The position numbers were made by a program, and so were the translations under genes. Of a stretch of DNA of 13,167 nucleotides, positions 1-13,167 are shown piece after piece. The notes beneath the pieces are model-generated. The model did not search any database, was not told the DNA's origin, and worked only from the letters and a program-made list of their open reading frames with translations. This DNA comes from a virus. Where the stretch lies: positions 1-13,167 of IMG/VR virus record IMGVR_UViG_3300021387_000118, one strand, 5' to 3'. How positions within the stretch are numbered: position 1 is the first letter of the stretch; each line of letters begins with the position of its first letter.

Positions 1-191
1 AAGTGCAAAAATCATTAGAAGTACAACTTGCTATGGAAGAGTTATCAAATCACATAAAAGAACAACAACTAAAAACATGCCACGAAATATTGCAAACAAA
101 AAATAGTCCGCTAACTTATTTAAGAAAACCCAGGTTCAGGTTTGGAAAGAAGAAAGATTATGATAGAGTTGCCGAAGTAAAGGAGATATAA
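1..191 (+). CDS. 3' end of a gene that starts upstream of the window; hypothetical protein (C-terminal 62 aa visible)
   Basis: The open frame runs off the 5' edge in frame 3 and stops with TAA at 189-191. There is no start context inside the window other than a possible internal ATG at 37. Confidence 0.45.
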   Translation, partial: VQKSLEVQLAMEELSNHIKEQQLKTCHEILQTKNSPLTYLRKPRFRFGKKKDYDRVAEVKEI

Positions 192-218
192 ATAGAGTTT
201 TTGGTTGGAGGAAAACCT

Positions 219-431
219 ATGACCGAGAAAAAATTATATACTTGTGATATTTGCAAAACCGATTATGCCAGTAAAGAAAAAGCTATTCAATGTGAAAAGA
301 ATCATAAGCTGTTAGAAACCGCGACAATAGTTGGAGTTTATAAATCTATGAACTCCATCAAAGAGGGTGTTCCCACAAAAATAAGAGTTAAATTTAAAGG
401 CATGGATGAGTTCATAGAATATGGGAGGTAA
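219..431 (+). CDS. small hypothetical protein (70 aa) with Cys-rich N-terminus (CDIC...C..C), possible zinc ribbon
   Basis: GGAGG at 207-211 lies 7 nt before ATG 219. The stop TAA at 429-431 overlaps the RBS of the next gene. Confidence 0.6.
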   Translation: MTEKKLYTCDICKTDYASKEKAIQCEKNHKLLETATIVGVYKSMNSIKEGVPTKIRVKFKGMDEFIEYGR

Positions 432-433
432 AG

Positions 434-661
434 ATGAATAATTATAATACAGCAACCACAGAAGAAATATCTCTTGCATTAAGAAAAGTTAAAGAACTTG
501 CCACAATGAGTCTTGTTTGGTCAAGACCTGTTTGTAAGCAGTGTGAATTTTATGATTTTAATGAGATGTCGGACGAATCATATTGTATAGCTAAAGATTA
601 TGAACCAATTCATCTTTATAGAAAGCATCGTCCTGATTGGTGTCCGAGATTGAACAAATAA
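434..661 (+). CDS. small hypothetical Cys-containing protein (75 aa; CKQC...C...C)
   Basis: GGGAGG at 423-428 lies 5 nt before ATG 434. Matches the ORF track. Confidence 0.65.
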   Translation: MNNYNTATTEEISLALRKVKELATMSLVWSRPVCKQCEFYDFNEMSDESYCIAKDYEPIHLYRKHRPDWCPRLNK

Positions 662-769
662 AATAAGTTTGTGAACGGAGATATAATTGCTCCTGTTGGA
701 TGGTTTGGACTTTGCGGGATGAAAAAACCGTGATGAAAACAGGAGTATGTATTACAGCTAGGAGACAGA

Positions 770-967
770 ATGAAACATACAAAACAAGAATATATTGATT
801 TCTTTACCCATATGGAACAAGAAGAAATTCACAATGGGCCTCTGGATGGACAGGCTTGGGACGAAGTTGATTGGTGGATCTATTATGCAGTAGATGTAGA
901 CAAGACACTCACAGAGGATGAACTAAAGGGCATGTTTCCGAACTTGTTCAGATGGGAGGACGAATGA
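770..967 (+). CDS. hypothetical acidic small protein (65 aa)
   Basis: AGGAGA at 760-765 precedes ATG 770. The stop overlaps the next start in an ATGA arrangement at 964-967. Confidence 0.6.
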   Translation: MKHTKQEYIDFFTHMEQEEIHNGPLDGQAWDEVDWWIYYAVDVDKTLTEDELKGMFPNLFRWEDE

Positions 968-1491
968 AAGTTATAACTGCACCGGAGTATTATGAGCCAC
1001 ATGATAAAGATATTTCAGTGTTTCTGGCTGGTGGTATTACGAATTGTCCTGATTGGCAGTCACGGGTAATTAAAACTATAAAAGATGACTATAGTGTAAT
1101 TAGTGATTCACTTGTATTATTTAATCCACGTCGTGAAAATTTTCCAATTCATGATAAACTCGCGGCAATACAGCAAATATTATGGGAGTTTGATATGATT
1201 GAAAAGTGCAATATTTTTTCAATTTATTTTTCATCTGGGGATAGTGATCAGCCGATTTGTATGTATGAACTTGGACGCAATATTTTGAGAATGCAGATGA
1301 GATTCCCATCTGATTGGGAAGACAGAATTATTATCAGTGTCGAAGATGGCTATAGACGCAAACAGGATGTGTTAATTCAGACCGAATTGGCAACAAATAG
1401 TAAGATTTTTGTTAATACACAAGTTTCTAAAGACATAGGTATGGAGTATCACATTCAAAATATAATGAGAGCGTTTAAGAAATTCAGATAG
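964..1491 (+). CDS. nucleoside 2-deoxyribosyltransferase-like protein (PF05014/DUF4406-like Rossmann fold)
   Basis: N-terminal VFLAGGIT resembles the NDT IYFGAGWF motif. DSDQPICMYELGRN resembles the NDT catalytic-Glu motif (G.GMELGYA). GGAGG at 955-959 precedes ATG 964. The alternative start is ATG 952. Confidence 0.55.
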   Translation: MKVITAPEYYEPHDKDISVFLAGGITNCPDWQSRVIKTIKDDYSVISDSLVLFNPRRENFPIHDKLAAIQQILWEFDMIEKCNIFSIYFSSGDSDQPICMYELGRNILRMQMRFPSDWEDRIIISVEDGYRRKQDVLIQTELATNSKIFVNTQVSKDIGMEYHIQNIMRAFKKFR

Positions 1492-1527
1492 TGGATTATT
1501 AATGAGTTTTTGATAGGAGAGAATAAA

Positions 1528-1761
1528 ATGGATTTTTCGCTAGGTGGAATACCAATTTATAACGCAAGAAATATAGAGTGGAAATCAAATGGCGATGGTA
1601 CTGGGCAGCTCTGGTTTAATACTGTGGTTGCAGATAAAAACGGCAAAGAGCAAGATGTAAGATTTCATATATTCAGATTAAAGTTTGATGACCCGTTAAT
1701 ATCTATTGAATCAGTTGATAATAAATTATACGAGATTGAAACGGTAGATCATTCATTCTAA
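1528..1761 (+). CDS. hypothetical protein (77 aa)
   Basis: The conserved junction cassette TTTTGATAGGAGAG ends 8 nt before ATG 1528. The track ORF begins at an upstream TTG in the same frame. Confidence 0.6.
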   Translation: MDFSLGGIPIYNARNIEWKSNGDGTGQLWFNTVVADKNGKEQDVRFHIFRLKFDDPLISIESVDNKLYEIETVDHSF

Positions 1762-1787
1762 TAAAAAGATAATTTAATGGTAAATAA

Positions 1788-1985
1788 ATGATAGGTAAAT
1801 GTCTAAACAACTGTGATAATAAAACCAAAGATGGATATTGCAAAACTACTGGATGTATAAACTCTCAATACCGACAATATCTAACTACGGGTATCGAAGA
1901 TGGATGGATTAAAGTTGATAAACAAACATGGAGAGAGTATCAAATGATGAAAGATCCAGACTACGGAGTTGGAAAATTTAGTTAA
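1788..1985 (+). CDS. small Cys-rich hypothetical protein (65 aa; C..NC...C...C)
   Basis: It is a track ORF with only a weak RBS, but it fits the co-directional packing. Confidence 0.4.
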   Translation: MIGKCLNNCDNKTKDGYCKTTGCINSQYRQYLTTGIEDGWIKVDKQTWREYQMMKDPDYGVGKFS

Positions 1986-2147
1986 TAAATAACTTTTTAT
2001 GCCTGAGATGGTATGCGATTGAGGAAATGAACTCATGATTTAAAAACTAATCATTTAAGCGGTGGGTTAGGATTAGCTCCGAAAGGTAACCATGTCCAAG
2101 GATGAAGCAACTACCGCATAAGAAGACTATTTAATGAGGATCATTGA

Positions 2148-2360
2148 ATGCGTTTATATGAAATCGAAGCAGATTATCGACCGAAGAATCCAAAGAAGCC
2201 CAAATATTATGTCTGGGCAGACACGACTAAAGATGCAAAATTGGTTTTTAACAATATAATCAGTTGGCTTACGATTTATAATGTCGCTCCAATGAACAAA
2301 GAAGACTCTGATAAGATATGTAATGAACCAGATAAGTATATAATCATAGGAAAAAAGTAA
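2148..2360 (+). CDS. hypothetical basic protein (70 aa)
   Basis: GAGGA at 2134-2138 lies 9 nt before ATG 2148. The stop overlaps the start of the next gene (TAATG). Confidence 0.55.
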   Translation: MRLYEIEADYRPKNPKKPKYYVWADTTKDAKLVFNNIISWLTIYNVAPMNKEDSDKICNEPDKYIIIGKK

Positions 2361-2791
2361 TGTATAAACAAATAATCATAGTTCGTAAAGACTTAAATAT
2401 GGGCCACGGCAAGATGGCTGCGCAAGTTGCACATGCTTCAATGTCGTTCTTATCATGGTTTGTAAGAGATAATGCTGACCAAGATGGTCATATTGACGCT
2501 TGGTTTGACAAGGATATCTTAGATAACTGGCTGAATGGCATTTATACTAAGGTTGTGTTACAGGCCAAGAATAAGGGTCAACTAGAGAAAGCAATTATCC
2601 TAGCTAATGAAATAGGCTTGGTGGAGGGGAAAGATTATTTTTTAATCAAAGATAACTGCCTTACAGAGCTTGAGCCGGAAGAAGTTGATGAATATGGTGT
2701 TGGTAGAACATTGACTTGTATTGGATTTAAACCGATGGATTCCGAAGTAATAGACAAGGTTGCCAAGAAGTTTCATATTTATGTAGATTAA
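2360..2791 (+). CDS. pth2: peptidyl-tRNA hydrolase, PTH2 family
   Basis: IIIVRKDLNMGHGKMAAQVAHAS matches the PTH2 signature (VVRxDLxMGKGKxAAQCxHAA). The C-terminal GRTLTCIGFKP...IDKV matches PTH2 (QTVLGIGPGP..IDKV). The TAATG overlap links it to the upstream gene. Confidence 0.85.
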   Translation: MYKQIIIVRKDLNMGHGKMAAQVAHASMSFLSWFVRDNADQDGHIDAWFDKDILDNWLNGIYTKVVLQAKNKGQLEKAIILANEIGLVEGKDYFLIKDNCLTELEPEEVDEYGVGRTLTCIGFKPMDSEVIDKVAKKFHIYVD

Positions 2792-2835
2792 CCAATAAAT
2801 AAGAGTAATACAAGTTGTATTGAAGGATTGTGAGA

Positions 2836-3018
2836 ATGAACAATAAAATAATCTTAGACAATAAAGAAATGTTTGTCGCAGTACAAGAGTATTTATCTAA
2901 AAGAAATATTGAATTACCAGAAGATGTTTCTGTTACTATGAAACTAAAGAAAAGATTGCCAGGAGATCCATTTCCAGATGATTATATTCCGTATATAGAG
3001 GTTGAATATAATGTATGA
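2836..3018 (+). CDS. hypothetical protein (60 aa)
   Basis: AAGGA at 2822-2826 precedes ATG 2836. The track ORF starts at an upstream GTG in the same frame. Confidence 0.5.
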   Translation: MNNKIILDNKEMFVAVQEYLSKRNIELPEDVSVTMKLKKRLPGDPFPDDYIPYIEVEYNV

Positions 3019-3244
3019 ATATATAAATTGTCCCGTCTGCGGAACGCGCAATGAATATACTACTTATTCTGAATTGGGGTTCGGAATAATCGAGCGACAT
3101 TATCATTGTCCTAGATGTACATATTTCGTTGAACAAGCATATAGTCCAGTATGTGTCGGAATTAGTACAGACTGTCCAGAAGAATATCTTGAAAGAGCCA
3201 AAGAGTTGAAATTGGATTTTTATCAGCCGGATGAGATACCGTGA
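3011..3244 (+). CDS. zinc-ribbon protein (CPVCG ... CPRC), 77 aa
   Basis: GAGG at 2998-3001 lies 9 nt before ATG 3011. It carries two CxxC pairs. It overlaps the 3' end of the upstream gene by 8 nt. Confidence 0.6.
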   Translation: MYEYINCPVCGTRNEYTTYSELGFGIIERHYHCPRCTYFVEQAYSPVCVGISTDCPEEYLERAKELKLDFYQPDEIP

Positions 3245-3312
3245 AAGTATGTTGGGTGTAAATCCTAACTCACAGAAAATATTGGGAATGTATGGATTGA
3301 AAGAAGTGTTTT

Positions 3313-3564
3313 ATGAGTAAGAGAAGAAAAGGCCGATCAATTGACCATCATTGGCAATTTGTAAAATATAAAGGTGACGGAGCGTTCTATGCTAAATGCA
3401 GTTGCGGATTTCATTATGGATGTGATAAGCCAAAATACGAAAATTCTAGTATCCCAACAGTCCCATCACCTGAGAAGTTATATAACTACTGCCCACATTG
3501 TGGAGCGAGAAAAACAAGATATTATGATGAACCAATATATATTGATAAGTATTGGTTTGAGTAA
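3313..3564 (+). CDS. zinc-finger-like protein (CSCG ... CPHCG), 83 aa, basic N-terminus
   Basis: It is a track ORF with a weak SD. The overlapping frame at 3374..3568 is less gene-like. Confidence 0.5.
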   Translation: MSKRRKGRSIDHHWQFVKYKGDGAFYAKCSCGFHYGCDKPKYENSSIPTVPSPEKLYNYCPHCGARKTRYYDEPIYIDKYWFE

Positions 3565-3576
3565 ATGAGGATTGAT

Positions 3577-3774
3577 ATGAGTGTTGAAGGATTTTTGCTT
3601 AAAAGAAGAAGGTTTAGAACTACTCACAACATGTATCAACTAACTTGCGACGATGAACATTTTGATTTGGATATGGCGGTTAGCTTATTGGAAAATATTG
3701 GGAAAGTGGCAGAAGATGGTAAAGAGATGTGGACAATAGTTCCACCAGGATATAAATGGAGTGTTGTAAAATGA
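3577..3774 (+). CDS. hypothetical protein (65 aa; 69 aa if started at ATG 3565)
   Basis: GAGGA at 3567-3571 lies 5 nt before ATG 3577. The in-frame ATG 3565 abuts the upstream stop and is the alternative start. Confidence 0.5.
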   Translation: MSVEGFLLKRRRFRTTHNMYQLTCDDEHFDLDMAVSLLENIGKVAEDGKEMWTIVPPGYKWSVVK

Positions 3775-4145
3775 CAAGAGTAATAATTGCGGGGAGCAGA
3801 CAGTTTAATGATTATCATAAGATGTTAACAGAATTGGACAACCTTGGAATTCATTTTATCAATACCATAGATCCAATAGAGATTGTTAGTGGTCATGCTT
3901 CTGGTGCTGATGCTCTTGGCGAAAGATTTGCTAAAGAATATAATTATCCGCTCAAGACATTCCCCGCCGAATGGAATAAATACGGGAAAGCTGCCGGACC
4001 AATCCGCAATGAACAGATGGCTAAATATGCAGCAGAGGCTGATCGAGGGATTTTGATTGCGTTCCCAATTGGAGAGAGTAGGGGAACTAACAATATGATT
4101 AAACTAGCAAAACAGTATGGCCTAGAAGTAAACGTGGTGTATTGA
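3771..4145 (+). CDS. SLOG-superfamily (DprA/LOG-like; DUF2493-like) Rossmann protein
   Basis: VIIAGSRQF is a Rossmann beta1 strand. GHASGADALGERFA matches the GxARGxDxxA motif. AGPIRNEQM matches the GPxRNxxM motif. ATGA overlaps the upstream stop. The alternative start is ATG 3756 with AGGA at 3747-3750. Confidence 0.55.
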   Translation: MTRVIIAGSRQFNDYHKMLTELDNLGIHFINTIDPIEIVSGHASGADALGERFAKEYNYPLKTFPAEWNKYGKAAGPIRNEQMAKYAAEADRGILIAFPIGESRGTNNMIKLAKQYGLEVNVVY

Positions 4146-4166
4146 TTAAATACTTTTATACTACTA

Positions 4167-4195
4167 TTGACAACAAGTAGATAAAAAAGTATAAT
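4167..4195 (+). promoter_or_regulatory. perfect sigma-A/sigma-70 consensus promoter TTGACA-N17-TATAAT
   Basis: TTGACA sits at 4167-4172, the spacer is exactly 17 nt, and TATAAT sits at 4190-4195. It lies in the 79-nt gap before the gene at 4225. Confidence 0.75.
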
Positions 4196-4224
4196 CAATA
4201 TAAATTATTAAAAGGAGAAAACCA

Positions 4225-4584
4225 ATGGCTGGATTAGAAGAACTTAAAACTGTTTACAAAATGATTAAGAATTATTATGGATATAAATGTACAGATGTAA
4301 TTTTCCGCAAAGATGAAGATGACGAATTCTGTGAGTTAGTTTTTGAGTATCAGGGGTTCCCAGTAAAGACAATATTCTCTTATGGGTTTTGCACTAATGT
4401 GATATACCCTAATAATGATGAAGTAACTATCATTGGCAATGATGAAAAGAATGGGGCAGTTCTTTCGACCACGGTTTATTTCGCTATCTGCGATTTTATT
4501 AAGACTATTAATAAGAATAGATTCGATAATGAAGCTATAAATGCATTCATTGATTATCTGTGGGATGATGTTATAAATGTATAA
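4225..4584 (+). CDS. hypothetical protein (119 aa)
   Basis: AAAGGAG lies about 7 nt before ATG 4225. It is the first gene downstream of the consensus promoter. Confidence 0.65.
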   Translation: MAGLEELKTVYKMIKNYYGYKCTDVIFRKDEDDEFCELVFEYQGFPVKTIFSYGFCTNVIYPNNDEVTIIGNDEKNGAVLSTTVYFAICDFIKTINKNRFDNEAINAFIDYLWDDVINV

Positions 4585-4604
4585 TTAAATGAAGAGGAAT
4601 GAAT

Positions 4605-5099
4605 ATGCTATCTCAATCCAACATTGATAAACTTCATGTAAATGGTATTTATAAATGCGAACCCGTATTGAGTTGGTTACCATTCTATAAACGAGATAAT
4701 CCTTACTGGTGTCGCAACTGGACGTTTAAGGTTAAAGAATATAAAGGTCACTATGCTATGTATGATACTTACTGGTCAACAGGTGACGATTATCCAATAG
4801 AACTTACAGATGAGAATTTTGATAAATTTGAATATCTGTTTGATTTGGATGATATTCGGTATATACATGATTATGAAAGCTGGCTTGAATATCCAGAAGA
4901 AGATAGATGGAGAGTGCCACTAGATTCTGGCGGCACCAATCATGCAAAATATGTTGTTCGGCGTGGAGCCAAGAGGGTTAAGGAACGAGTTATCGAGAGA
5001 ATGCAGCGTGATATTGATTGCTTAAAGCATGAGTTATCTCAGAAAGGGCGGATCCTCGAAGGGATTATCAATGGTAGTATTGATTGGAATATATGCTGA
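4605..5099 (+). CDS. hypothetical protein (164 aa), Trp/Tyr-rich
   Basis: GAGG at 4594-4597 lies 7 nt before ATG 4605. ATG 4599 is too close to the SD. Confidence 0.6.
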   Translation: MLSQSNIDKLHVNGIYKCEPVLSWLPFYKRDNPYWCRNWTFKVKEYKGHYAMYDTYWSTGDDYPIELTDENFDKFEYLFDLDDIRYIHDYESWLEYPEEDRWRVPLDSGGTNHAKYVVRRGAKRVKERVIERMQRDIDCLKHELSQKGRILEGIINGSIDWNIC

Positions 5100-5162
5100 T
5101 GGAGAGTGTGATGTGGGATCCAGAAACTGATGCTTGCGATTATTGAAAGGAGAGGACAACTC

Positions 5163-5324
5163 ATGGATCAAGCACATATGATAAAAGACCTTGAAATTGC
5201 AAAATGCATACTGAGTAATTTAAACACCCCACTTGATGGGATGATGAGAGTCTGTATTGGGCAAATTATATCGGAAGCAATTGACGCATTAAAAATAGAG
5301 GAGAAACATAATGAGGATAATTAA
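5163..5324 (+). CDS. small hypothetical protein (53 aa)
   Basis: AAAGGAGAGG at 5146-5155 lies 7 nt before ATG 5163. The track ORF from 5130 lacks an RBS. Confidence 0.5.
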   Translation: MDQAHMIKDLEIAKCILSNLNTPLDGMMRVCIGQIISEAIDALKIEEKHNEDN

Positions 5325-5712
5325 TCGAAATGAATTAGCAAAGATGCCAAATGGCACGGTGTTCTCATCATTTGATGGTTATAGTGTTGACGGATTTGAA
5401 ATTATAACAGGCAGCCATGGTGATGGATTTAATGGTACGCTTGATCTGGAACCAAGTTTTAATTGGGATAGTGATCATGCGGAACGTATTACTAACTGGT
5501 CAACTGTAGATACCGCCGATTATGATTTTGATGAGGATGCCAAGTTCGTTGTTTATAGTAAGAATGAAATACGTGAAATAATTCAGTGGCTAAAATGGGC
5601 CATTGACGAAGACGGACATCCTGATATGGAAAAGTATTTTTATAAAAACCAAGTAATGTCGGAGGGGGAAGCTTCAAAATATACTAATGGTCATGGCTTA
5701 TGGTGGGGATAA
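5311..5712 (+). CDS. hypothetical protein (133 aa)
   Basis: GAGGAG at 5298-5303 lies 7 nt before ATG 5311. Confidence 0.65.
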   Translation: MRIINRNELAKMPNGTVFSSFDGYSVDGFEIITGSHGDGFNGTLDLEPSFNWDSDHAERITNWSTVDTADYDFDEDAKFVVYSKNEIREIIQWLKWAIDEDGHPDMEKYFYKNQVMSEGEASKYTNGHGLWWG

Positions 5713-5724
5713 AACAAGATTTCA

Positions 5725-5904
5725 ATGCCTAATTATGTAAGATGCATTCAGTTAGAACCTGGATTAAAATTATATTATAGTAATAAAGAACAATGTTTAA
5801 GAACATCGGAAGAATTAACAAATGCCGGATTTAAGAATCGTGTTGCATATAATTATGACGGTGATTTTTGGAGTATATATGTATTAGATGAAACAAGTCT
5901 TTGA
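5725..5904 (+). CDS. small hypothetical protein (59 aa), below the ORF-track cutoff
   Basis: It fills an otherwise empty gap. It ends ...DETSL with its stop inside the conserved junction cassette (AAGTCTTTGATAGGAG). The SD is weak. Confidence 0.4.
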   Translation: MPNYVRCIQLEPGLKLYYSNKEQCLRTSEELTNAGFKNRVAYNYDGDFWSIYVLDETSL

Positions 5905-5919
5905 TAGGAGAAAAAATAT

Positions 5920-6120
5920 ATGTACGATCCTGAAGAAATAAATAAAAATCCTTGGTGGTGGATAAGAAATAGAGGAAAAATTAATGATGCTCTTGAAGTA
6001 ATAGATCTTGCTTTAGAAGAATATGATGAGGGACGCGGGTTGGCATTTTCTGATATTCCAGATAAATTTAAAGATATCAAAAATTTCTTTAATGATGTTT
6101 GCTATCCTGATTGGAAGTGA
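5920..6120 (+). CDS. hypothetical Trp-rich protein (66 aa)
   Basis: The junction cassette TTTGATAGGAGAAAAAATAT precedes ATG 5920. Confidence 0.6.
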   Translation: MYDPEEINKNPWWWIRNRGKINDALEVIDLALEEYDEGRGLAFSDIPDKFKDIKNFFNDVCYPDWK

Positions 6121-6144
6121 AAATTAGATTTTATTGGAGAATTT

Positions 6145-6429
6145 ATGAAGAAGATTGATGAAGGAAATATGAGTGGACTTCGTGATTGGTGTGCTATGCA
6201 TGGTATAATATACGTGCAATGGTATCCATATGATAATTGTTCTGGTTATTACATAGAGAATCCATCAGAGGATGCATTGGAAAAATTCTATGAAAATGTT
6301 AATGCGTCTGATCCATATCATAGATCTTTTGTTTTAATATTGGGGAAGACTGAAACTCATAATAATTTGAACATGAGAACTATTGATGAATATATACAAC
6401 ATGGTATATTACCTTTTCTATTTTGTTGA
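6145..6429 (+). CDS. hypothetical protein (94 aa) carrying an LRDWC motif
   Basis: The cassette TTTTATTGGAGAATTT precedes ATG 6145. It contains a 17-nt exact repeat shared with the gene at 7415. Confidence 0.6.
   Translation: MKKIDEGNMSGLRDWCAMHGIIYVQWYPYDNCSGYYIENPSEDALEKFYENVNASDPYHRSFVLILGKTETHNNLNMRTIDEYIQHGILPFLFC
6177..6193 (+). repeat. 17-nt exact repeat ACTTCGTGATTGGTGTG (copy 1, inside the gene at 6145)
   Basis: The identical 17-mer recurs at 7558-7574 inside the gene at 7415. Both copies encode LRDWC. Confidence 0.8.
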
Positions 6430-6455
6430 AAAACTGAATTTGATTGGAGAAAAAT

Positions 6456-6791
6456 ATGAGTTATAACGAGAACGGTATTTGTAAATTCGCAATAGAACGA
6501 GAAGACGGTCATGGTGAGCAGCAACGTCATCCGTTACAGCTGGTGGCAAGAATAGATGTTGATGACCTGGTAAAGCTATTCGATGAAGCCCCGACAAATT
6601 TTGATGGCGAGAACCCCATTTGTAAAGTAAAAGATCCAATTAAATTTACGAAGTTTGTCATCAGGAGATTATGGGACGATGCACCATATGAAGCTGATGA
6701 TGTTGTTTGGGCACAGCCGTTGACTTATATCTTTGAACAATTACTAGAAGATTATAGGCCGGAGTTTCTGGAGTATTTTGATGAGGTATGA
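6456..6791 (+). CDS. hypothetical acidic protein (111 aa)
   Basis: The cassette TTTGATTGGAGAAAAAT precedes ATG 6456. The track ORF starts at an upstream TTG in the same frame. Confidence 0.6.
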   Translation: MSYNENGICKFAIEREDGHGEQQRHPLQLVARIDVDDLVKLFDEAPTNFDGENPICKVKDPIKFTKFVIRRLWDDAPYEADDVVWAQPLTYIFEQLLEDYRPEFLEYFDEV

Positions 6792-6821
6792 AATTGAGGT
6801 TTTATCGGAAAAGAGGTAAAA

Positions 6822-6989
6822 ATGTTTAAATTTGAAAAAATAGCCGAAATAAGGACTGTTAGCGGGAAAGTGACAAAAGAGGTTGTTGAAGCCCTCATAG
6901 ATAAAGGGTTTTATTTATGCCTTGACGGAAATTATGCAATGGATGGATGCGATTTTATTGTAATGAAAAAAGCATCTGATGAAAACTAA
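6822..6989 (+). CDS. small hypothetical protein (55 aa), below the ORF-track cutoff
   Basis: AAGAGG at 6811-6816 lies 5 nt before ATG 6822. It fills a 190-nt gap in the same orientation. Confidence 0.5.
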   Translation: MFKFEKIAEIRTVSGKVTKEVVEALIDKGFYLCLDGNYAMDGCDFIVMKKASDEN

Positions 6990-7017
6990 GTTTTATTGGA
7001 ATTTTGAAGTGATATTT

Positions 7018-7197
7018 ATGAAGAAAATACTAATAGTTAAAAATGGCAATACCCCAATGGGAATATTCGAGACAGAAAGAGTTGAAGAACACTGGAGTTG
7101 GGGAAAGCATTGGTTTGACTTTCAATTGAAAGATGGAAGTAGATCAGTAGATTATCAGATGCCTTTATGCCACTACTATATTTTGAAAAAGAAATAA
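7018..7197 (+). CDS. small hypothetical protein (59 aa)
   Basis: A cassette variant AAGTTTTATTGGAATTTTGAAGTGA precedes ATG 7018. The in-frame ATG 6979 is the alternative start, but it lies inside the upstream small ORF. Confidence 0.45.
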   Translation: MKKILIVKNGNTPMGIFETERVEEHWSWGKHWFDFQLKDGSRSVDYQMPLCHYYILKKK

Positions 7198-7214
7198 GTT
7201 TTATGGGAAGTAAT

Positions 7215-7394
7215 ATGGATATATATAAACTAATAGATTACTACATTGACAAATATTTAGAAGAAAAGGAACATCAAACAGATGGTTATACTCGTGCTGG
7301 GATGTTACAGGGATTATTATGGATTTGTCGCTTTGGTGGCGTAACAGATGAGAACCTTGGTGATGATAGATTAATAAAGATATCTAGCAAATGA
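7215..7394 (+). CDS. small hypothetical protein (59 aa)
   Basis: The cassette variant AAGTTTTATGGGAAG ends 5 nt before ATG 7215. The alternative start is ATG 7203. Confidence 0.5.
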   Translation: MDIYKLIDYYIDKYLEEKEHQTDGYTRAGMLQGLLWICRFGGVTDENLGDDRLIKISSK

Positions 7395-7414
7395 AATAAA
7401 CGCTTGGAGGCACT

Positions 7415-7594
7415 ATGACAAATTTTGAAAAATATATAAATAGCTTAACACAGGATAAGTTCATAGATTCGATGATACTAAACTGCGATGGTTGTCCAGC
7501 GTATCCATGTAATGATGAAAATATTACAGAAGACAATGGGCTTGATTGCGAAGAAAAACTTCGTGATTGGTGTGAAACTGAAAGAAGTCTTTGA
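7415..7594 (+). CDS. small Cys-rich protein (59 aa; CDGCPAYPC ... LRDWC), below the track cutoff
   Basis: GGAGG at 7406-7410 lies 4 nt before ATG 7415. Its stop sits inside the junction cassette. It shares the 17-nt repeat with the gene at 6145. It is preferred over the overlapping ORFs at 7384..7698 (-) and 7488..7796 (+). Confidence 0.55.
   Translation: MTNFEKYINSLTQDKFIDSMILNCDGCPAYPCNDENITEDNGLDCEEKLRDWCETERSL
7558..7574 (+). repeat. 17-nt exact repeat ACTTCGTGATTGGTGTG (copy 2, inside the gene at 7415)
   Basis: See copy 1. Confidence 0.8.
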
Positions 7595-7606
7595 TGAGGA
7601 AAAAAT

Positions 7607-7888
7607 ATGTATAGAGAGATGCCACCAGATGCAATGCAACCACATGATACTTGGATTATTGCCTTTTGCCCAGATACAGATTCGTTCTTTGTCACCAATC
7701 AGAGGGCATTCTACTGGGAATCCGAAGAAGAATTTGAATCAGAAGAAGCTGGAATATATTTCTTTGAGCATCAGATTCAATACTTCATTGATGTAGAAGA
7801 AAAATTAATGAGCGACATGTTTATTAATGATTGGAATACTGATCGTGTTTTTCTGGAGAACACAAATAGACGATATCTTAAAAGCTAA
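7607..7888 (+). CDS. hypothetical acidic protein (93 aa)
   Basis: The cassette AAGTCTTTGATGAGGAAAAAATAT precedes ATG 7607. Confidence 0.6.
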   Translation: MYREMPPDAMQPHDTWIIAFCPDTDSFFVTNQRAFYWESEEEFESEEAGIYFFEHQIQYFIDVEEKLMSDMFINDWNTDRVFLENTNRRYLKS

Positions 7889-7906
7889 GTTTAATTGGAG
7901 AATGTA

Positions 7907-8230
7907 ATGGTAGCAAGATGTGGGAATACTGGTGTTACTGTTGGCAGCGAATGGTGTGGATTATGCCGAGTGCATGGATGCGAAGGATATAAATTATTTA
8001 AACAATCATGTAAGAATGGCGAACAATTTAATGAAGGAGAAGCTATGGTAGAAATTAATGATGTGAATCTTAACAAAGAACTTATGTGTGAGATTAGAAT
8101 TCCTATAGGAGTTAATAGAGAGACAATTACAAATCCTTTTAAGATACTTGGATTTGATGTAAGACAAATTGGCAGCCTTTCTAATGGTGATATTATTTAT
8201 GAGGTGGTTGATAAACCTAAGGTGAGATAA
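7907..8230 (+). CDS. Cys-rich (C..C..C...C) hypothetical protein (107 aa)
   Basis: The cassette AAGTTTAATTGGAGAATGTA precedes ATG 7907. The track ORF starts at an upstream TTG in the same frame. Confidence 0.6.
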   Translation: MVARCGNTGVTVGSEWCGLCRVHGCEGYKLFKQSCKNGEQFNEGEAMVEINDVNLNKELMCEIRIPIGVNRETITNPFKILGFDVRQIGSLSNGDIIYEVVDKPKVR

Positions 8231-8252
8231 TTATGAATGGGAGATATTAGAT

Positions 8253-8606
8253 ATGAAGAGCTGTCCAAATTGTGGCGCACCATTTGAACCTTATAAATGC
8301 AAGTGTGAATTTTGCGGCACATGGTACTTTGATTTCACTGCATTTGATATGAGTGAGAATGTACCATACTATGTAAAGTTTAGAACGCCATATGGAATAA
8401 TTACTACATTGGCTAGACCGGAATTACAGACAATTGAAGTAAATGACGATTATTATTATGCCTGTAATTCAAGGGGTAATAAAATTGCTAAAATTGTTGG
8501 GAACAGAAGCTGTGATCTTAATGTAACATTTCATTCACAGATTGATCCAGAAACTGAAACGTTGTATCAGTTGGAAGTATCTAATGAAAATGGAATAGAA
8601 AAATGA
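8253..8606 (+). CDS. zinc-ribbon protein (CPNCG ... CKCEFCG N-terminus), 117 aa
   Basis: GGGAGA at 8239-8244 lies 8 nt before ATG 8253. It has an N-terminal Cys4-type ribbon. Confidence 0.65.
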   Translation: MKSCPNCGAPFEPYKCKCEFCGTWYFDFTAFDMSENVPYYVKFRTPYGIITTLARPELQTIEVNDDYYYACNSRGNKIAKIVGNRSCDLNVTFHSQIDPETETLYQLEVSNENGIEK

Positions 8607-8656
8607 TTTAATGAGTAAAAAAGAATGAATGAGGAGTAATCCTGAAGGAAATAATT

Positions 8657-8923
8657 ATGAGATATTTTAAATGTGCAGCGATTAGATACAAGACAGGTGA
8701 AGACATCTGGACAGAAAGACGAGGCAAAAGACATCATGAAATTATTAAAGCAATTCATGATGCTGGAGAAACAGAGCAGTATAAGAAATGTCATGTGGAT
8801 GGATTTATAATCGGAGAAAGTTGGACCGCAGAATTTGTAGACCGAGAAACTGCTACAGAAATCGCCAAAGAAATGGGGATTAAAATGCGAGGTTGTGTTC
8901 TAACATCTGAAGATTTGTGGTAA
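8657..8923 (+). CDS. hypothetical protein (88 aa)
   Basis: GAAGGA at 8643-8648 lies 8 nt before ATG 8657. Confidence 0.6.
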   Translation: MRYFKCAAIRYKTGEDIWTERRGKRHHEIIKAIHDAGETEQYKKCHVDGFIIGESWTAEFVDRETATEIAKEMGIKMRGCVLTSEDLW

Positions 8924-8946
8924 TAAGTTAATAAGAGGAGTCCATA

Positions 8947-9123
8947 ATGATGGAACGATGTGAATATTGTGAGTATCGTAATGGCTGGGAATGTAGTGAT
9001 GGATACTATAGAGTTTCTAATGATAAGATGTGCGAGAGGTTTAAGTTAGATTTCGACACGCTAAGTGATGGTGTTAAACGTCAGATCCAGAAGCGATTGA
9101 TTGGCGAGTTGGAATGGATTTAA
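8947..9123 (+). CDS. small zinc-binding-like protein (58 aa; CEYCEY ... C ... C), below the track cutoff
   Basis: AGAGGAG at 8934-8940 lies 6 nt before ATG 8947. It fills a gap and ends with TAA at 9121-9123. Confidence 0.5.
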   Translation: MMERCEYCEYRNGWECSDGYYRVSNDKMCERFKLDFDTLSDGVKRQIQKRLIGELEWI

Positions 9124-9127
9124 GAAA

Positions 9128-9436
9128 ATGATGAATTGTGATAATTGCAGATATTATGAATGGTATTATGATTATTGTAGTAAATGGAAATGCAAAGTAG
9201 ATTCGAGAGAGGTTCATGATTGTTTTAAACCCCGTGAAAATAATATGGTTAATAAAATATTAAGAAAAGACTTTAGCAATCCGAATAAGTTGGTTGCTGG
9301 ATATGAAGTAGTAGATGAAGAGCCGGAAGAAATAACTTTTAAGTATTCAGATTTCGAAGTATTCCACAGTGGAAACGCTGCAATCTGGTCTCCGTTGGTT
9401 TGGCAACTAAGATATAATTATGGATTGTATAAATGA
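9128..9436 (+). CDS. Cys-rich hypothetical protein (102 aa; CDNC ... C..C.C)
   Basis: ATG 9128 is 4 nt after the upstream stop, suggesting translational coupling. The SD is weak. The track ORF starts at an upstream TTG in the same frame. Confidence 0.5.
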   Translation: MMNCDNCRYYEWYYDYCSKWKCKVDSREVHDCFKPRENNMVNKILRKDFSNPNKLVAGYEVVDEEPEEITFKYSDFEVFHSGNAAIWSPLVWQLRYNYGLYK

Positions 9437-9446
9437 GGAAATAACA

Positions 9447-9755
9447 ATGTTATTAGATATTATAACTTCGACAAAGATTGGCATTTTTTATTTAGATAAA
9501 GGTTGGAAAGACGATGTTTATGAGAAAATTAGAGCCGATGCTTTAAAGTGTGAGACTCTTAAGTATTTCAATAAAAATGAAATATGCTTTGCTGACAAGC
9601 ATATAAAGATATGTATTTATTTTTATCCGGTAGATAATAATGTTAGAGGATGCAGATTTGATCGAGTTTATTATCAGCAGGGCATAGATAGAGATGTTTT
9701 ATTAAGTCGAGCTGCACCAAAGATATTAACAAGGATGTATCCGCTAGATGTTTAA
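9447..9755 (+). CDS. hypothetical protein (102 aa)
   Basis: GAGGAA at 9433-9438 lies 8 nt before ATG 9447. Confidence 0.55.
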   Translation: MLLDIITSTKIGIFYLDKGWKDDVYEKIRADALKCETLKYFNKNEICFADKHIKICIYFYPVDNNVRGCRFDRVYYQQGIDRDVLLSRAAPKILTRMYPLDV

Positions 9756-9768
9756 TAGGAGGAAAATA

Positions 9769-9966
9769 ATGAAGAAAAAAGAACATATGAGAATTATGAA
9801 TAAGGCAACTATTAAGGTATTCTTTAAAGATGGTAACGTTGATGAGATCCCGTCCAGGATCTGGGATGACTATCAGTATATTGATAGGCTGTTTGTTGTT
9901 AAGAGACGTGGAGTTTGGATTGGAATTTACAACATGGATGGAGTAGATTGTATTACCATCGGATAA
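9769..9966 (+). CDS. small basic hypothetical protein (65 aa)
   Basis: AGGAGG at 9756-9761 lies 7 nt before ATG 9769. Confidence 0.6.
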   Translation: MKKKEHMRIMNKATIKVFFKDGNVDEIPSRIWDDYQYIDRLFVVKRRGVWIGIYNMDGVDCITIG

Positions 9967-9984
9967 GAAGAATGGAGTATTGTA

Positions 9985-10644
9985 ATGAGTAATTATGTAA
10001 TTCACGCTTGCCCTAAGAGATTGTGGTATGTAGAAGAATTTCTCGTACCATCACTCAAAGAACAGGGCATAGAGAATATTGACGTAAGATGTGACAACTT
10101 TAAGCGTGGTAATCTTTTGTATTGTATGGATATCTTTGGAAGAATGACCGGAGATGGTGGCAGTTGGCACATACAGGACGATGTGGTTATTTGCCGAGAT
10201 TTCGCTCAACGTACTGCTAAGTATGATGGCAAGAATGAAATAGTGTGTGGCTTTGCTTGGGATAAAGATCCTAACATAGACAAAATCGACCATGTGCAGC
10301 AATCTGATATGTGGTACTCATTTCCTTGTATATATATCCCTAACTACATTGCCAAGGAATGTTCTGAATGGTTTTTCAATAAAGGACGATATGATGGAAG
10401 ATATTTATCATTTAGCGTTAAAGGCCAGTTCGATGATTATTTCTTCCAGAAGTATCTGATGGAGTATTATCCAGAACTTCCCGTTCTACATATTAAGCCG
10501 AGTCTTGTTGATCATATTGATTACCTAATTGGTGGAACAACAGTGGAAGCTATTGGCAGAGACGAGGTTAGTAGAGCAAAGTGGTTTGATGATCCTGATC
10601 TTGTTAATCAATTAAAGGAGAGGTTAAAATACAGAAATGGCTAA
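9985..10644 (+). CDS. first copy of a tandem paralog pair: GT-A-fold/DxD-like putative glycosyltransferase (219 aa)
   Basis: GGAG at 9974-9977 lies 7 nt before ATG 9985. DGGSWHIQDDVVI resembles the GT-A (h)GG(v)Y(l)DxDhh motif. The C-terminal LVDHIDYLIGG has an H-x-D pair. It is clearly paralogous to the ORF at 10637..11302. Confidence 0.6.
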   Translation: MSNYVIHACPKRLWYVEEFLVPSLKEQGIENIDVRCDNFKRGNLLYCMDIFGRMTGDGGSWHIQDDVVICRDFAQRTAKYDGKNEIVCGFAWDKDPNIDKIDHVQQSDMWYSFPCIYIPNYIAKECSEWFFNKGRYDGRYLSFSVKGQFDDYFFQKYLMEYYPELPVLHIKPSLVDHIDYLIGGTTVEAIGRDEVSRAKWFDDPDLVNQLKERLKYRNG

Positions 10645-11302
10645 TTATTTAATTCATGCTTGTCCAGAACGAATGTGGTATGTGGATAATTATCTGGTGC
10701 CATCACTTCGTAATCAGGGTATTAATAATATTATTGTCAGTTGTGATCAGTTACATTTGGGGAATCTAGAAAGTTGTATGAAGATTTTCGGTTCTCTGGA
10801 AGACGATGGTTATGGTACATGGCATCTGCAAGATGATGTGATTATATGCCGGAACTTTCGGGAAATTACCGAGAGATATGATTATGGTGTTGTTTGCGGT
10901 TTCACTCATTCACGATCTGCTAACACTGGATTTGTTTTACCGGATAAGATGTGGTACTCATTTCCATGTATTAGAATATCTAACGGGATAGCCAAAGAAT
11001 GTTCACAGTGGTACTATTCGTTCGCTAAGAAATATGCTAAATATTATGAATGGGTTCATATGGGGAAATGTGATGATAATTTCTTCTATGAATTCATGAA
11101 TAAGTATTGTTCTACATTAGATGTATTAAATCTAGTTCCTAATTTGGTTGATCATATTGATTACCTTCTGGGAGGATCAATGGTTAACCAATACAGGAAT
11201 GGCGAACAATTTAGATCAGCTTACTTTGAGGATGTTGATCTTGTAGATCAATTAGCTAATGATATAAGGAGAAATAATAATGGTACGAATGCTTCATTAT
11301 GA
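10637..11302 (+). CDS. second copy of the tandem paralog pair: GT-A-fold/DxD-like putative glycosyltransferase (221 aa)
   Basis: It shares with the upstream ORF the blocks YxIHACPxRxWYV..LVPSL, WHxQDDVxICRxF, MWYSFPCI, IAKECSxW and LVDHIDYLxGG. It overlaps the upstream stop by 8 nt. AAGGAGAGG lies upstream. Confidence 0.6.
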   Translation: MANYLIHACPERMWYVDNYLVPSLRNQGINNIIVSCDQLHLGNLESCMKIFGSLEDDGYGTWHLQDDVIICRNFREITERYDYGVVCGFTHSRSANTGFVLPDKMWYSFPCIRISNGIAKECSQWYYSFAKKYAKYYEWVHMGKCDDNFFYEFMNKYCSTLDVLNLVPNLVDHIDYLLGGSMVNQYRNGEQFRSAYFEDVDLVDQLANDIRRNNNGTNASL

Positions 11303-11591
11303 TGATCGTAAAGAAGAACGTCAATCGCATGAGATCTATTTTCAACTGTCTGGCGATGATGATTTTAAAAACTTCTTTGGGGCTGAAGGTGATGGTCATG
11401 TGACTGAATTGAGTTTGGCAAGTCTACGTGCATATGGGGCAACTAAGGAAGAAGCTCTCAAGAACATGGAACCTATCATGGAATGGTTAGCTGCCGAAAT
11501 CCAGGCAATCTACCTTCTCTATCAAGATGGATTTTATGATAAAAATGTTATTGACGTTGATGCTGCTGGTATACCTATAGGAGAAGAATGA
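11280..11591 (+). CDS. HicB/UPF0150-like domain protein (103 aa)
   Basis: AGGAG at 11266-11270 lies 9 nt before ATG 11280. ELSLASLRAYGATKEEALKNMEPIMEWL resembles the UPF0150/HicB N-domain motif (PxLPG..a.G.T.EEAL.N..EAi..wl). Confidence 0.4.
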   Translation: MVRMLHYDDRKEERQSHEIYFQLSGDDDFKNFFGAEGDGHVTELSLASLRAYGATKEEALKNMEPIMEWLAAEIQAIYLLYQDGFYDKNVIDVDAAGIPIGEE

Positions 11592-11914
11592 TGAAATATC
11601 GTATTAAAGAAATCCTTCATAGCGGCAGAAAAGATACTAGGAATAAGCCAGTTGACTCACCTAAGTTTGATGGCATGATTGGTTCTATTATCGAACTCAA
11701 GTATATAGAAGATCCCAATATGAATATAACTGAGATTGATAATATAGAAGATATTAAACAGTTTAGTTTAGTTGGATGGGATTTTTTATCTGGAGATGCT
11801 CCGTATGAGTATTGGGAAACTACTGCCGTTATAGCGATTTATCTGGATTATAATGATGTGTATCACATCGAAACTGCTAATACTATTTATAAACTGGAAA
11901 AAATCGAAGACTAA
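11588..11914 (+). CDS. hypothetical protein (108 aa)
   Basis: AGGAGAAG precedes the ATGATG at 11588/11591. ATGA overlaps the upstream stop. Confidence 0.55.
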   Translation: MMKYRIKEILHSGRKDTRNKPVDSPKFDGMIGSIIELKYIEDPNMNITEIDNIEDIKQFSLVGWDFLSGDAPYEYWETTAVIAIYLDYNDVYHIETANTIYKLEKIED

Positions 11915-11943
11915 TTTATTGAAAATATATAAAATGTGTCAGA

Positions 11944-11972
11944 TTGTCATTCTAGTATGTGAGTAGTATAAT
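11944..11972 (+). promoter_or_regulatory. near-consensus sigma-A promoter TTGTCA-N17-TATAAT
   Basis: TTGTCA sits at 11944-11949, the spacer is 17 nt, and TATAAT sits at 11967-11972. It lies in the 98-nt gap upstream of the HPr-like gene. Confidence 0.7.
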
Positions 11973-11980
11973 TAATTTCG

Positions 11981-11998
11981 TTAATAATTAATTATTAA
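11981..11998. promoter_or_regulatory. perfect 18-bp palindrome TTAATAATTAATTATTAA directly downstream of the -10; candidate operator
   Basis: The 18 bases are exactly self-complementary. They sit between the TATAAT box and the RBS of the gene at 12013. Confidence 0.4.
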
Positions 11999-12012
11999 AC
12001 AAGAGGTAACAT

Positions 12013-12255
12013 ATGAGAATTCTATTGGACTTGGATCTGGAAAAAATCAACGATCTATGCAAGATTTGCGACACATCATCATTAGATGTTAATGTTGTTT
12101 CTGGCAGTTTGATTGTTGACGGTTGTTCAGTGATGGGTGTCATGGGGTTGTGCGATAGAGTTGTTGAATTAAAACCTGTAACAACAGATCCCATGGAAAT
12201 TGCAGCATTTTTTGAAAGAGTAAAGCCGTTAGGCGCATATTTCAGTAAGGAGTAA
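12013..12255 (+). CDS. HPr/Crh-like phosphocarrier-fold protein lacking the His15 active site
   Basis: DVNVVSGSLIVDGCSVMGVMGLCDRVVEL aligns to the HPr segment [32 protein letters not shown], so the Ser46 region is conserved. The N-terminal LDLEKINDL has no equivalent of the GIHARPA His15 loop. AGAGG lies 6 nt before ATG 12013. Confidence 0.5.
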   Translation: MRILLDLDLEKINDLCKICDTSSLDVNVVSGSLIVDGCSVMGVMGLCDRVVELKPVTTDPMEIAAFFERVKPLGAYFSKE

Positions 12256-12260
12256 AAATT

Positions 12261-12686
12261 ATGAAGAGAAAGAGTATTCAGAACAAAAATTTTAAGATTA
12301 TCCCCGAAGCAAAGCTTGTACAGGGCGAAATGCCGGAAAAGCTTATTGCGTATGATTTGACTGCTGGAATTAAGAGTAAGTATAAGGATCTTATTTTAGC
12401 GGCATCATTTGAATATGAAGATGACTGGTTCCCGTGTGACAATGTAATTACCGCTAATGCTTACTGCGATGAAAAGGATGAGTGGGATGAGAAGGTTGGC
12501 ACCGATGTTTGTGCTGCCAAGTTGGAACTGAAGAATCACCAGAAGCTCGCTAAGAAGTACGATAGAATTGCTAGAGATCTTCAGGAAGCCTGTCTGATCG
12601 CCCAGAGTTATTGCATTCGACATGAAGCAAAGGCTATGTCTATTGAGGATGATCTGATACAGTATCACGGAAGGTTGCCGATGTGA
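12261..12686 (+). CDS. hypothetical protein (141 aa)
   Basis: AAGGAG at 12244-12249 lies upstream of ATG 12261. Matches the ORF track. Confidence 0.6.
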   Translation: MKRKSIQNKNFKIIPEAKLVQGEMPEKLIAYDLTAGIKSKYKDLILAASFEYEDDWFPCDNVITANAYCDEKDEWDEKVGTDVCAAKLELKNHQKLAKKYDRIARDLQEACLIAQSYCIRHEAKAMSIEDDLIQYHGRLPM

Positions 12687-12697
12687 GGAGGAACTAA

Positions 12698-13167
12698 ATG
12701 GAGTTTGTAAATGAAATCATTAACAATATCTGGAAAGACAGATATAGAAAGAATAATGAAACACTTGAGGGTAATTTTAGAAGAGTTGCGAAGTTTTGTG
12801 CGAAAGATAAAAATGATGAAAATGACTTTTTTAATGTTATGGACAGAGGTCTTTTTTATCCGGCTGGAAGAACTATGAGTAATTCTGGTGTTGGTACAAA
12901 ACTAACTCTTAATAATTGCTTTACGGCTCCCCAAATTGGAGATAGCTACGATGAAATATTTGACAGAGTAAGACTTGGGGCAGTTACTCATCAGCGCGGT
13001 GGAGGTATTGGATATGATTTCTCGCAGCTTCGTCCTAAAGGATCTCCTACTTCTAATAACGCAGTTGCTTCTGGACCAGTGAGTTTTATGGATGTTTTTA
13101 ATGCACAGACAGAGACTACAATCCAGGGGCAACGCCGTGGAGCAAATATGGGTATTATGAATGTATA
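12698..13167 (+). CDS. nrdJ: ribonucleotide reductase catalytic subunit, N-terminal part (runs off the window); most consistent with class II adenosylcobalamin-dependent NrdJ
   Basis: GAGGAGG at 12685-12691 lies 6 nt before ATG 12698. LNNCF, RGGGIGYDFSQLRPKGS, ASGPVSFMDVF and QRRGANMG match the RNR active-site and N-terminal signatures (compare Thermotoga NrdJ: LSACFV, GGGTGFSFSRLRPKG, ASGPVSFMRVFD, KRRGANM). It is absent from the ORF track because there is no stop in the window. Confidence 0.8.
   Translation, partial: MEFVNEIINNIWKDRYRKNNETLEGNFRRVAKFCAKDKNDENDFFNVMDRGLFYPAGRTMSNSGVGTKLTLNNCFTAPQIGDSYDEIFDRVRLGAVTHQRGGGIGYDFSQLRPKGSPTSNNAVASGPVSFMDVFNAQTETTIQGQRRGANMGIMNV

Follow-up and report, generated by a model that had tools for sequence, protein, structure and literature searches.

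A PTH2-type peptidyl-tRNA hydrolase gene of an uncultured phage and its proposed role in tRNA recycling

Bacterial Pth1 is the essential peptidyl-tRNA hydrolase of the host, and it catalyses the same reaction as PTH2 with an unrelated fold and sequence. Why would a phage carry a PTH2 of its own? This question is raised by positions 1 to 13,167 of the IMG/VR virus record IMGVR_UViG_3300021387_000118 (13,167 nucleotides, hereafter the window), in which an initial annotation, made from the letters alone, had assigned the open reading frame (ORF) at 2360-2791 to the PTH2 family. We find that the core of this call, a predicted peptidyl-tRNA hydrolase of the PTH2 type encoded by a phage, has the support of its sequence and fold, of its conserved residues and the selection on the gene, and of the genomic context. 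It is probable, though well short of certain, that the product is a catalytically competent PTH2 esterase that recycles tRNA, most likely as the ribosome-rescue arm of a phage toolkit for tRNA repair and counter-defence.

Identity of the gene and its phage setting

The ORF runs from an ATG start to a TAA stop and encodes a protein of 143 amino acids (aa). Its translation contains the GKMAAQVAHAS and GRTLTCIGFKP...IDKV motifs, as the initial annotation had read them. The Pfam family PTH2 (PF01981) matches the protein with E=9.1e-24 and 84.3 bits, the gathering score being 23. Residues 2-140 cover profile positions 1-114 of 115, and this coverage bears out the earlier claim of a family match that is nearly end to end. 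No family besides PTH2 was returned by a Pfam scan of the protein, and all of its 120 closest homologs likewise carry PF01981. PHROG 1866, which is labelled 'unknown function', was matched at E=5e-20. By sequence alone the protein matches seven solved PTH2 proteins, including Ta0108 (1rlk, E=1.7e-10) and Pth2 of Sulfolobus solfataricus (1xty, 1e-8), and a profile of its relatives improves the PTH2 matches in the PDB to 4e-16.

The AlphaFold2 (AF2) model, built with 27 relatives in the alignment, has a mean predicted local distance difference test score (pLDDT) of 89.7 and a predicted template modelling score (pTM) of 0.84. A Foldseek search of the PDB with this model gave 14 matches with E<=1e-3, all of them PTH2 chains (best E approximately 1e-8), and the target-normalised template modelling (TM) scores of the crystal-structure PTH2 matches are 0.77-0.84. 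The viral fold matches in BFVD carry peptidyl-tRNA hydrolase annotation. Strong purifying selection acts on the gene: the ratio of nonsynonymous to synonymous substitution rates (dN/dS) is 0.036 against a relative that is 88% identical, a comparison in which synonymous sites are saturated. We conclude that 2360-2791 is confirmed as a real gene of the PTH2 family, with a match far beyond chance. The features discussed here are listed in Table 1.

Table 1. Features of the PTH2 locus in the window, followed by the gene families that recur near PTH2 in related loci
Feature	Position	Strand	Evidence or count
ORF70, 70-aa ORFan adjacent to PTH2, 1-nt overlap	2148..2360	+	dN/dS 0.09-0.17
AGGA, Shine-Dalgarno-like motif 8 nt 5' of the PTH2 ATG, inside the 3' end of ORF70	2348..2351	+	sequence
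PTH2-family peptidyl-tRNA hydrolase gene, stop codon included	2360..2791	+	ORF, Pfam, PHROG, PDB, AF2, dN/dS
AAG codon of Lys18, aligns with Lys18 of S. solfataricus Pth2	2411..2413	+	HMMER alignments, invariance
Insertion 1, aa ~36-50, RDNADQDGHIDAWFD, between helices alpha1 and alpha2, net charge -4	2465..2509	+	gaps against solved PTH2s
Loop D98-N-C100-L-T102, counterpart of D-A-G-x-T; Asp and Thr kept, Gly to Cys	2651..2665	+	alignments
Insertion 2, aa 108-116, EVDEYGVGR, directly after the catalytic loop	2681..2707	+	9-residue gap in all solved PTH2s
Calcineurin-like metallophosphoesterase, ~190-240 aa (Metallophos_2)			12 of 27 PTH2 lineages
AAA_33 P-loop kinase, polynucleotide-kinase type			8 of 27 PTH2 lineages
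DUF7788/DUF2828 protein			7 of 27 PTH2 lineages
Thg1			5 of 27 PTH2 lineages
RNA ligase (PF09414, with PHA02142 OB fold)			5 of 27 PTH2 lineages

The residues expected of an active enzyme are in place. HMMER alignments put K18, D98 and T102 of the window protein on K18, D86 and T90 of the S. solfataricus enzyme, which reportedly have catalytic roles. Only five columns (K18, D98, T102, F123 and P125) do not vary across 25 members of the subfamily with identities as low as 37%, and K18 is likewise invariant in an alignment of 27 close relatives. That these three positions should be among just five invariant columns is the pattern expected if the chemistry has been retained. In yeast Pth2, the substitutions D174A and D174N abolish hydrolase activity. 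From its position, 34 residues from the C-terminus in the yeast and Sulfolobus proteins alike, we infer that this residue corresponds to the DAGxT Asp. The Asp of the IKD segment, the possible loss of which the initial annotation had raised, is kept: it is D98 (codon 2651-2653) and aligns with the Asp of DAGxT.

A recent PDB entry named 'peptidyl-tRNA hydrolase', 24bt (chain A, 127 aa, organism unstated), is the second-best match by sequence (E=1e-9; 2.5e-14 with the profile). It starts with YKQVILIRTDLKMS, as in the phage subfamily, and is without either of the two insertions of the window protein.

That the gene is encoded by a phage is well supported. The window belongs to a phage-like metagenomic contig of 142,374 bp, and a contig of 99.5 kb encodes an identical PTH2 protein. 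Over at least 28 kb the genes are small, tightly packed and confined to one strand. This run is followed by genes for a ribonucleotide reductase, a dUTPase, a Band_7 protein and a tyrosine integrase and then, on the opposite strand, by an Amidase_2/Glucosaminidase/SPOR peptidoglycan hydrolase gene. In IMG/VR the PTH2 subfamily has 136 confirmed matches, on contigs that are mostly 90-190 kb. We found no near-identical DNA of the window in a collection of 50,697 phage records, indicating that the phage is uncultured. The GC content of the window is uniform at approximately 35%, with a strong strand skew; with this uniform GC content, recent horizontal acquisition of PTH2 is not indicated by composition.

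The host is probably a member of the Clostridia. A PTH2 homolog of 52% identity, adjoining a phage-family gene, lies in the genome of Lacrimispora amygdalina, the one genome returned by a scan of bacterial genome contigs with a single-sequence query, and a homolog of 70% identity is named 'aminoacyl-tRNA hydrolase [uncultured Eubacterium sp.]' in RefSeq. A bacterial host is favoured over an archaeal one because of the peptidoglycan hydrolase gene.

PTH2 seems to move independently, as an accessory cassette within a hypervariable stretch of small one-strand genes. A scan for a promoter and a terminator of PTH2 gave only weak 9/12 consensus matches and no terminator on the plus strand, and the gene is probably part of a long polycistronic unit. 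The AGGA at 2348-2351 is a candidate ribosome-binding site.

Proposed role in tRNA recycling

In brief, the PTH2 would cleave the ester bond of peptidyl-tRNA during infection and probably that of N-blocked aminoacyl-tRNA too, going by the known substrate range of Pth. Free tRNA would return to the pool, with PTH2 working beside the Pth1 of the host. Most likely this would serve to keep translation going when ribosomes stall and peptidyl-tRNA accumulates, and PTH2 would then be the ribosome-rescue arm of a large-phage toolkit that answers anticodon nucleases and other tRNA-targeting defences. We infer here the enzyme activity, substrate, expression timing and defence link of the window PTH2; tRNA recycling against defences that target tRNA or translation is a plausible role.

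The gene neighbourhoods of relatives point toward a role in tRNA recycling. Genes within 5 kb of PTH2 were clustered at 101 loci representing 27 PTH2 lineages at 90% identity. Hidden Markov models (HMMs) of the top clusters, with families named by Pfam, were then used to count neighbours within 10 kb of PTH2. The recurrent neighbours (Table 1) are predicted to make up a heal-and-seal toolkit for tRNA repair. A repair-type gene lies within 10 kb of PTH2 in 16 of the 27 lineages and within 1 kb in nine. In the closest sister lineages, a metallophosphoesterase gene is located 0.9 kb upstream (88% homolog) and a Thg1 gene 0.8 kb downstream (76% homolog) of PTH2. This organization suggests that PTH2 and the repair genes of the relatives may form one functional island that restores tRNA.

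A 723-aa fusion of an AAA_33 kinase, a calcineurin-like phosphoesterase and a T4 Rnl1-type ligase is encoded at three loci (L085 1626-3824, L086 7602-9800, and L014 554-2725 on the negative strand). On the viral contigs L085 and L086, approximately 200 nt separate this Pnkp-Rnl1 fusion from the PTH2 downstream of it, and in Lacrimispora the distance is 2.3 kb; from its domains it is predicted to be a complete heal-and-seal enzyme. The DUF7788/DUF2828 family includes a 540-aa protein (L096 10050-11672), which may be akin to the ROT/TROVE RNA-repair platform proteins of Iyer et al. One further relative sits between replication genes and genes for nicotinamide adenine dinucleotide (NAD) salvage. 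Here (L108 8524-13284) a PTH2 of 68% identity is followed by an isochorismatase (nicotinamidase-like), NAMPT, a faint Macro match and an NAD synthase. Together these genes make up a phage cluster for NAD+ salvage, such as serves to counter defences that deplete NAD.

Several observations weigh against the tRNA-recycling reading. A linkage control with uniform placement within +-10 kb gave 3 of 7 lineages, which is not significant (P=0.26), and is underpowered, the 27 lineages are not independent of each other, and phage genomes are modular anyway. We regard the linkage of PTH2 to repair genes as suggestive only. The HMMs of the relatives' neighbours found no ligase, kinase, phosphoesterase or Thg1 in the window, L001, L021 and L022 (approximately 30 kb). 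Neither a tRNA nor a tmRNA was predicted by ARAGORN in the window and 26 related loci, the approximately 30 kb of the window's own lineage included. In the literature that could be searched we found no biochemical or genetic study of any phage PTH2. The protein itself does not reach the cutoffs of the NCBIfam Pth2 equivalogs NF003314 and TIGR00283 (79.6 vs 126 and 63.5 vs 82 bits, respectively), and we accordingly place it in a divergent subfamily and do not regard it as an orthologue of archaeal Pth2. Its DAGxT loop reads DNCLT, with Cys in the canonical Gly position, and its acidic overall isoelectric point (pI) is unusual for a tRNA-binding enzyme.

The window phage, with no repair or defence-related gene seen beside PTH2, might use the enzyme simply as a housekeeping booster. 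In that case PTH2 would raise the recycling capacity of the cell, either because AT-rich mRNAs and many very short ORFs, when heavily expressed, raise peptidyl-tRNA drop-off or because the Pth1 of the host becomes limiting after host shut-off. The window, with a GC content of 35%, is indeed crowded with very small ORFs, and the PTH2 genes in the tRNA arrays of cluster C mycobacteriophages have been read as translation support. Growth of phage lambda is sensitive to host Pth activity, as known from the bar minigenes. However, the relatives repeatedly adjoin genes for tRNA heal-and-seal or NAD salvage, which are counter-defence-type contexts, and PTH2 is a patchy accessory cassette and no core gene. 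We consider the housekeeping explanation unlikely, though not far-fetched.

The divergence of the protein is concentrated in the loop and in two acidic insertions. C100 is invariant in the 27 close relatives and alternates with the canonical Gly in more distant members of the subfamily; since Gly returns there, the Gly position seems inessential to the family. Insertion 1 amounts to approximately 12 extra residues compared with every solved PTH2, and the model is less confident there (pLDDT 75-83). Insertion 2 lengthens the loop or hairpin that precedes the last core strand, as judged from the AF2 secondary structure, and the segment 105-116 has a net charge of -4. The pI is 5.2 for the whole protein and 8.5 once the insertions are taken out, close to the approximately 9 of the Sulfolobus and Pyrococcus enzymes. 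Given the Cys for Gly and the overall acidity that comes with the insertions, which is unusual for a tRNA-binding enzyme, the substrate or the binding mode may differ. Three things are particular to the window PTH2: a clade of uncultured phages from gut or rumen, two acidic insertions, and a Cys variant of the loop.

The site of insertion 1 is a variable hot spot, at which many relatives of approximately 200 aa hold 60-75 extra residues. Such inserts between alpha1 and alpha2 are found in the proteins P0121-P0123 and P0129 and in those encoded at L012 5001-5618 and L013 5001-5595. Other relatives have N-terminal extensions of 150-220 aa without a Pfam match. A Pfam search of the long inserts and N-terminal extensions of the relatives returned nothing save one Aldolase_II fusion.

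Could the fold have been repurposed, to act on another ester substrate or to bind or regulate a partner (a host protein or the ribosome, for example), and have lost its hydrolase activity? The sub-cutoff equivalog scores, the insertions beside the catalytic loop and at the hot spot, the invariant C100 of the close relatives and the label of PHROG 1866 could all be read in this way. Against it, three of the five columns that do not vary in the subfamily are catalytic positions, C100 reverts to Gly in several members, and the core without its insertions is basic, like archaeal Pth2. We consider such a repurposing highly improbable.

The intact catalytic positions would also suit an antidote to toxins that acylate or block tRNA. 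Pth has been shown to reverse tRNA acetylation by the TacT toxin in vitro, N-acetyl-aminoacyl-tRNA being a Pth substrate, and PTH2 might in the same way remove N-acetyl-amino acids from tRNAs poisoned by GCN5-related N-acetyltransferase (GNAT) toxins such as TacT, AtaT and ItaT. However, no GNAT or antitoxin gene was linked to PTH2 in any locus examined, we found no evidence of such toxins as anti-phage defences in the hosts concerned, and the Pth1 of the host already performs the reaction. An antidote role is very unlikely on these grounds.

A bolder version of the tRNA-recycling reading is that the PTH2s with acidic insertions and a Cys loop are a dedicated counter-defence enzyme of large Clostridia phages of gut and rumen, acting jointly with Pnkp, Rnl and Thg1, with a specificity beyond that of Pth1 conferred by the insertions. 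The insertions would then favour, for example, peptidyl- or aminoacyl-tRNAs after their cleavage or chemical blocking by host defence effectors. If so, PTH2 would supply a step, missing so far, that leads from ribosome stalling to tRNA repair. We offer this as a speculation that is rather unlikely to hold in full.

ORF70 and other genes of the window

The initial annotation had also noted a small basic ORF at 2148-2360, translationally coupled to PTH2 by a TAATG overlap, and had suggested it as a possible partner. Both features are present: the TAA stop of ORF70 overlaps the PTH2 ATG by one base (2358-2362), and the predicted protein is mildly basic (pI 9.0). ORF70 is a real coding gene, its dN/dS (Table 1) having been obtained against relatives of 70-81% identity. 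Homologs of ORF70 fall into ten clusters that are all at least 75% identical, which makes it a lineage-restricted ORFan, and searches of Pfam and PHROG with ORF70 gave no match.

The partnership does not agree with the distribution of the two genes across related contigs. Arguments for a coupled functional pair are the overlap, the pairing of a basic with an acidic protein, and an adjacency that is kept in four contigs even where the downstream genes differ. However, these four contigs are the only ones in which ORF70 accompanies PTH2, and their PTH2 proteins are 100% identical and hence carry no evolutionary signal. One-base gene overlaps are routine across the window. PTH2 homologs at 88%, 76%, 65% and approximately 50% identity have other genes upstream and no ORF70 beside them, whereas ORF70 homologs of 75-84% identity occur in five related contigs (L023-L027) with no PTH2 within 4 kb. 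A two-gene module of ORF70 and PTH2 is rejected, as related phages can carry either of the two genes alone, and we consider a functional partnership close to impossible. ORF70 and PTH2 are independent cassettes in a mosaic region.

No RNA family was found in an Rfam search of the window, including the 160-nt gap 5' of ORF70; the counterpart of this gap in L004 is filled by a 60-aa gene. On one related phage contig (L024 1204-1425), a gene of the Tad8 family (PF25189) is located 0.5 kb upstream of the ORF70 homolog. Going by its name, we take Tad8 to be an anti-defence family, and its presence near an ORF70 homolog fits an accessory or counter-defence island.

Other genes of the window are described in brief. 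A nucleoside 2-deoxyribosyltransferase (NDT)-like gene is encoded at 952-1491 on the plus strand (PF15891, E=9e-13). The same contig carries another member of the NDT family approximately 8 kb upstream (PF05014, L001 244-669), and homologs of the NDT-like gene recur in the related phages L026 and L027. Its role may be in nucleotide salvage, DNA modification or the degradation of signalling nucleotides. The gene at 3756-4145 (plus strand), approximately 1 kb downstream of PTH2, encodes a YspA/YAcAr SLOG-domain protein (PF10686, E=1.5e-14; phrog_289, 'GTP-binding domain') with homologs in 1,246 phage records. SLOG or YpsA genes are also located 1-2.5 kb from PTH2 in L015, L017 and L018. Just 5' of the ORF at 4225, positions 4167-4195 of the plus strand hold a perfect sigma-70 consensus (TTGACA, 17 nt, TATAAT), the sole 12/12 match in the region 1400-4300.

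Two tandem paralogues of 219 and 221 aa are encoded at 9985-10644 and 10637-11302 (plus strand). They are 47% identical (E=3e-73), overlap by 8 nt, had no match in Pfam, PHROG or PADLOC, and are kept as a pair in L021 and L022. PADLOC defence models had no match among the PTH2, ORF70, NDT-like, SLOG and paralogue-pair proteins. Small Cys-rich ORFs with CxxC pairs, resembling zinc ribbons, are found on the plus strand at 201-431, 434-661, 3002-3244, 3313-3564, 8253-8606, 8947-9123 and 9101-9436; in a family search of these ORFs only 3002-3244 was matched, by weak sub-threshold zinc-ribbon hits.

Comparison with known systems

The window PTH2 shares its domain and alpha/beta fold with the archaeal and eukaryotic Pth2 enzymes (1xty; Ta0108, 1rlk; Pyrococcus horikoshii, 1wn2/2d3k; human PTRH2/Bit1, 1q7s; yeast), and it has in common with them the catalytic Lys18 and, in the D-x-x-x-T loop, both Asp and Thr. 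It differs in being just 26-30% identical to them and below the equivalog cutoffs, in the Cys for Gly and the two acidic insertions, in coming from a phage of bacteria and in having no membrane anchor. With bacterial Pth1 it would share substrates, whereas fold and sequence differ.

The classical case of phage tRNA repair is that of T4, where Pnkp/PseT and Rnl1 counter PrrC. The relatives of the window PTH2 adjoin a Pnkp-Rnl1 fusion, kinases, phosphoesterases, ligases and Thg1. However, the classical T4 pathway does not include PTH2, and the window phage shows none of these repair genes within approximately 30 kb; the link to T4 is by neighbourhood only.

Homologs of the window PTH2 occur in 40 phage records at no more than 38% identity, and many of them are annotated as peptidyl-tRNA hydrolase. 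Annotated phage PTH2 genes are found in XacN1 and Xoo-sp13 (Xanthomonas), Atu_ph07 (Agrobacterium), phiM12/phiN3 (Sinorhizobium), the mycobacteriophages Myrna, Baka and Sandalphon, and Enterococcus phages. BFVD holds more annotated viral homologs, including those of Klebsiella phage RaK2 and of giant viruses. Iyer et al. 2021 (PMC7824862) noted the presence of the archaeo-eukaryotic PTH2 in phages whose hosts rely on Pth1, gave ribosome rescue as the rationale, and listed PTH2 among the genes by which jumbo phages repair RNA and rescue ribosomes. For the initial annotation, which had set a phage PTH2 against bacterial Pth1, this means that the identity stands, by fold and motifs, and that the implied novelty is overstated, as many phage records annotate the gene. 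Phage PTH2 and its proposed role are already in print, and the window gene is a divergent further member and no new class.

The annotated phage PTH2s belong to the same family, are carried by large phages and have the same proposed role in peptidyl-tRNA hydrolysis. The window gene differs from them in its low identity and in its separate clade of uncultured gut and rumen phages, of approximately 90-190 kb and probably with Clostridia as hosts. The cluster C mycobacteriophages, in which PTH2 lies within tRNA arrays, have tRNA genes by PTH2, whereas none was found near the window PTH2. The practical value of the gene is modest. In uncultured phages PTH2 can serve as a marker of regions with accessory or counter-defence genes, and the protein, being compact and well modelled, is a candidate for the first biochemistry on a phage PTH2, including the role of the acidic insertions. 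A tRNA-recycling PTH2 fits the view of translation and tRNA integrity as a major battleground between phage and host. If the enzyme is active, large gut phages of Clostridia would bring along a peptidyl-tRNA recycling of non-bacterial type, as the jumbo phages of Proteobacteria and some mycobacteriophages would.

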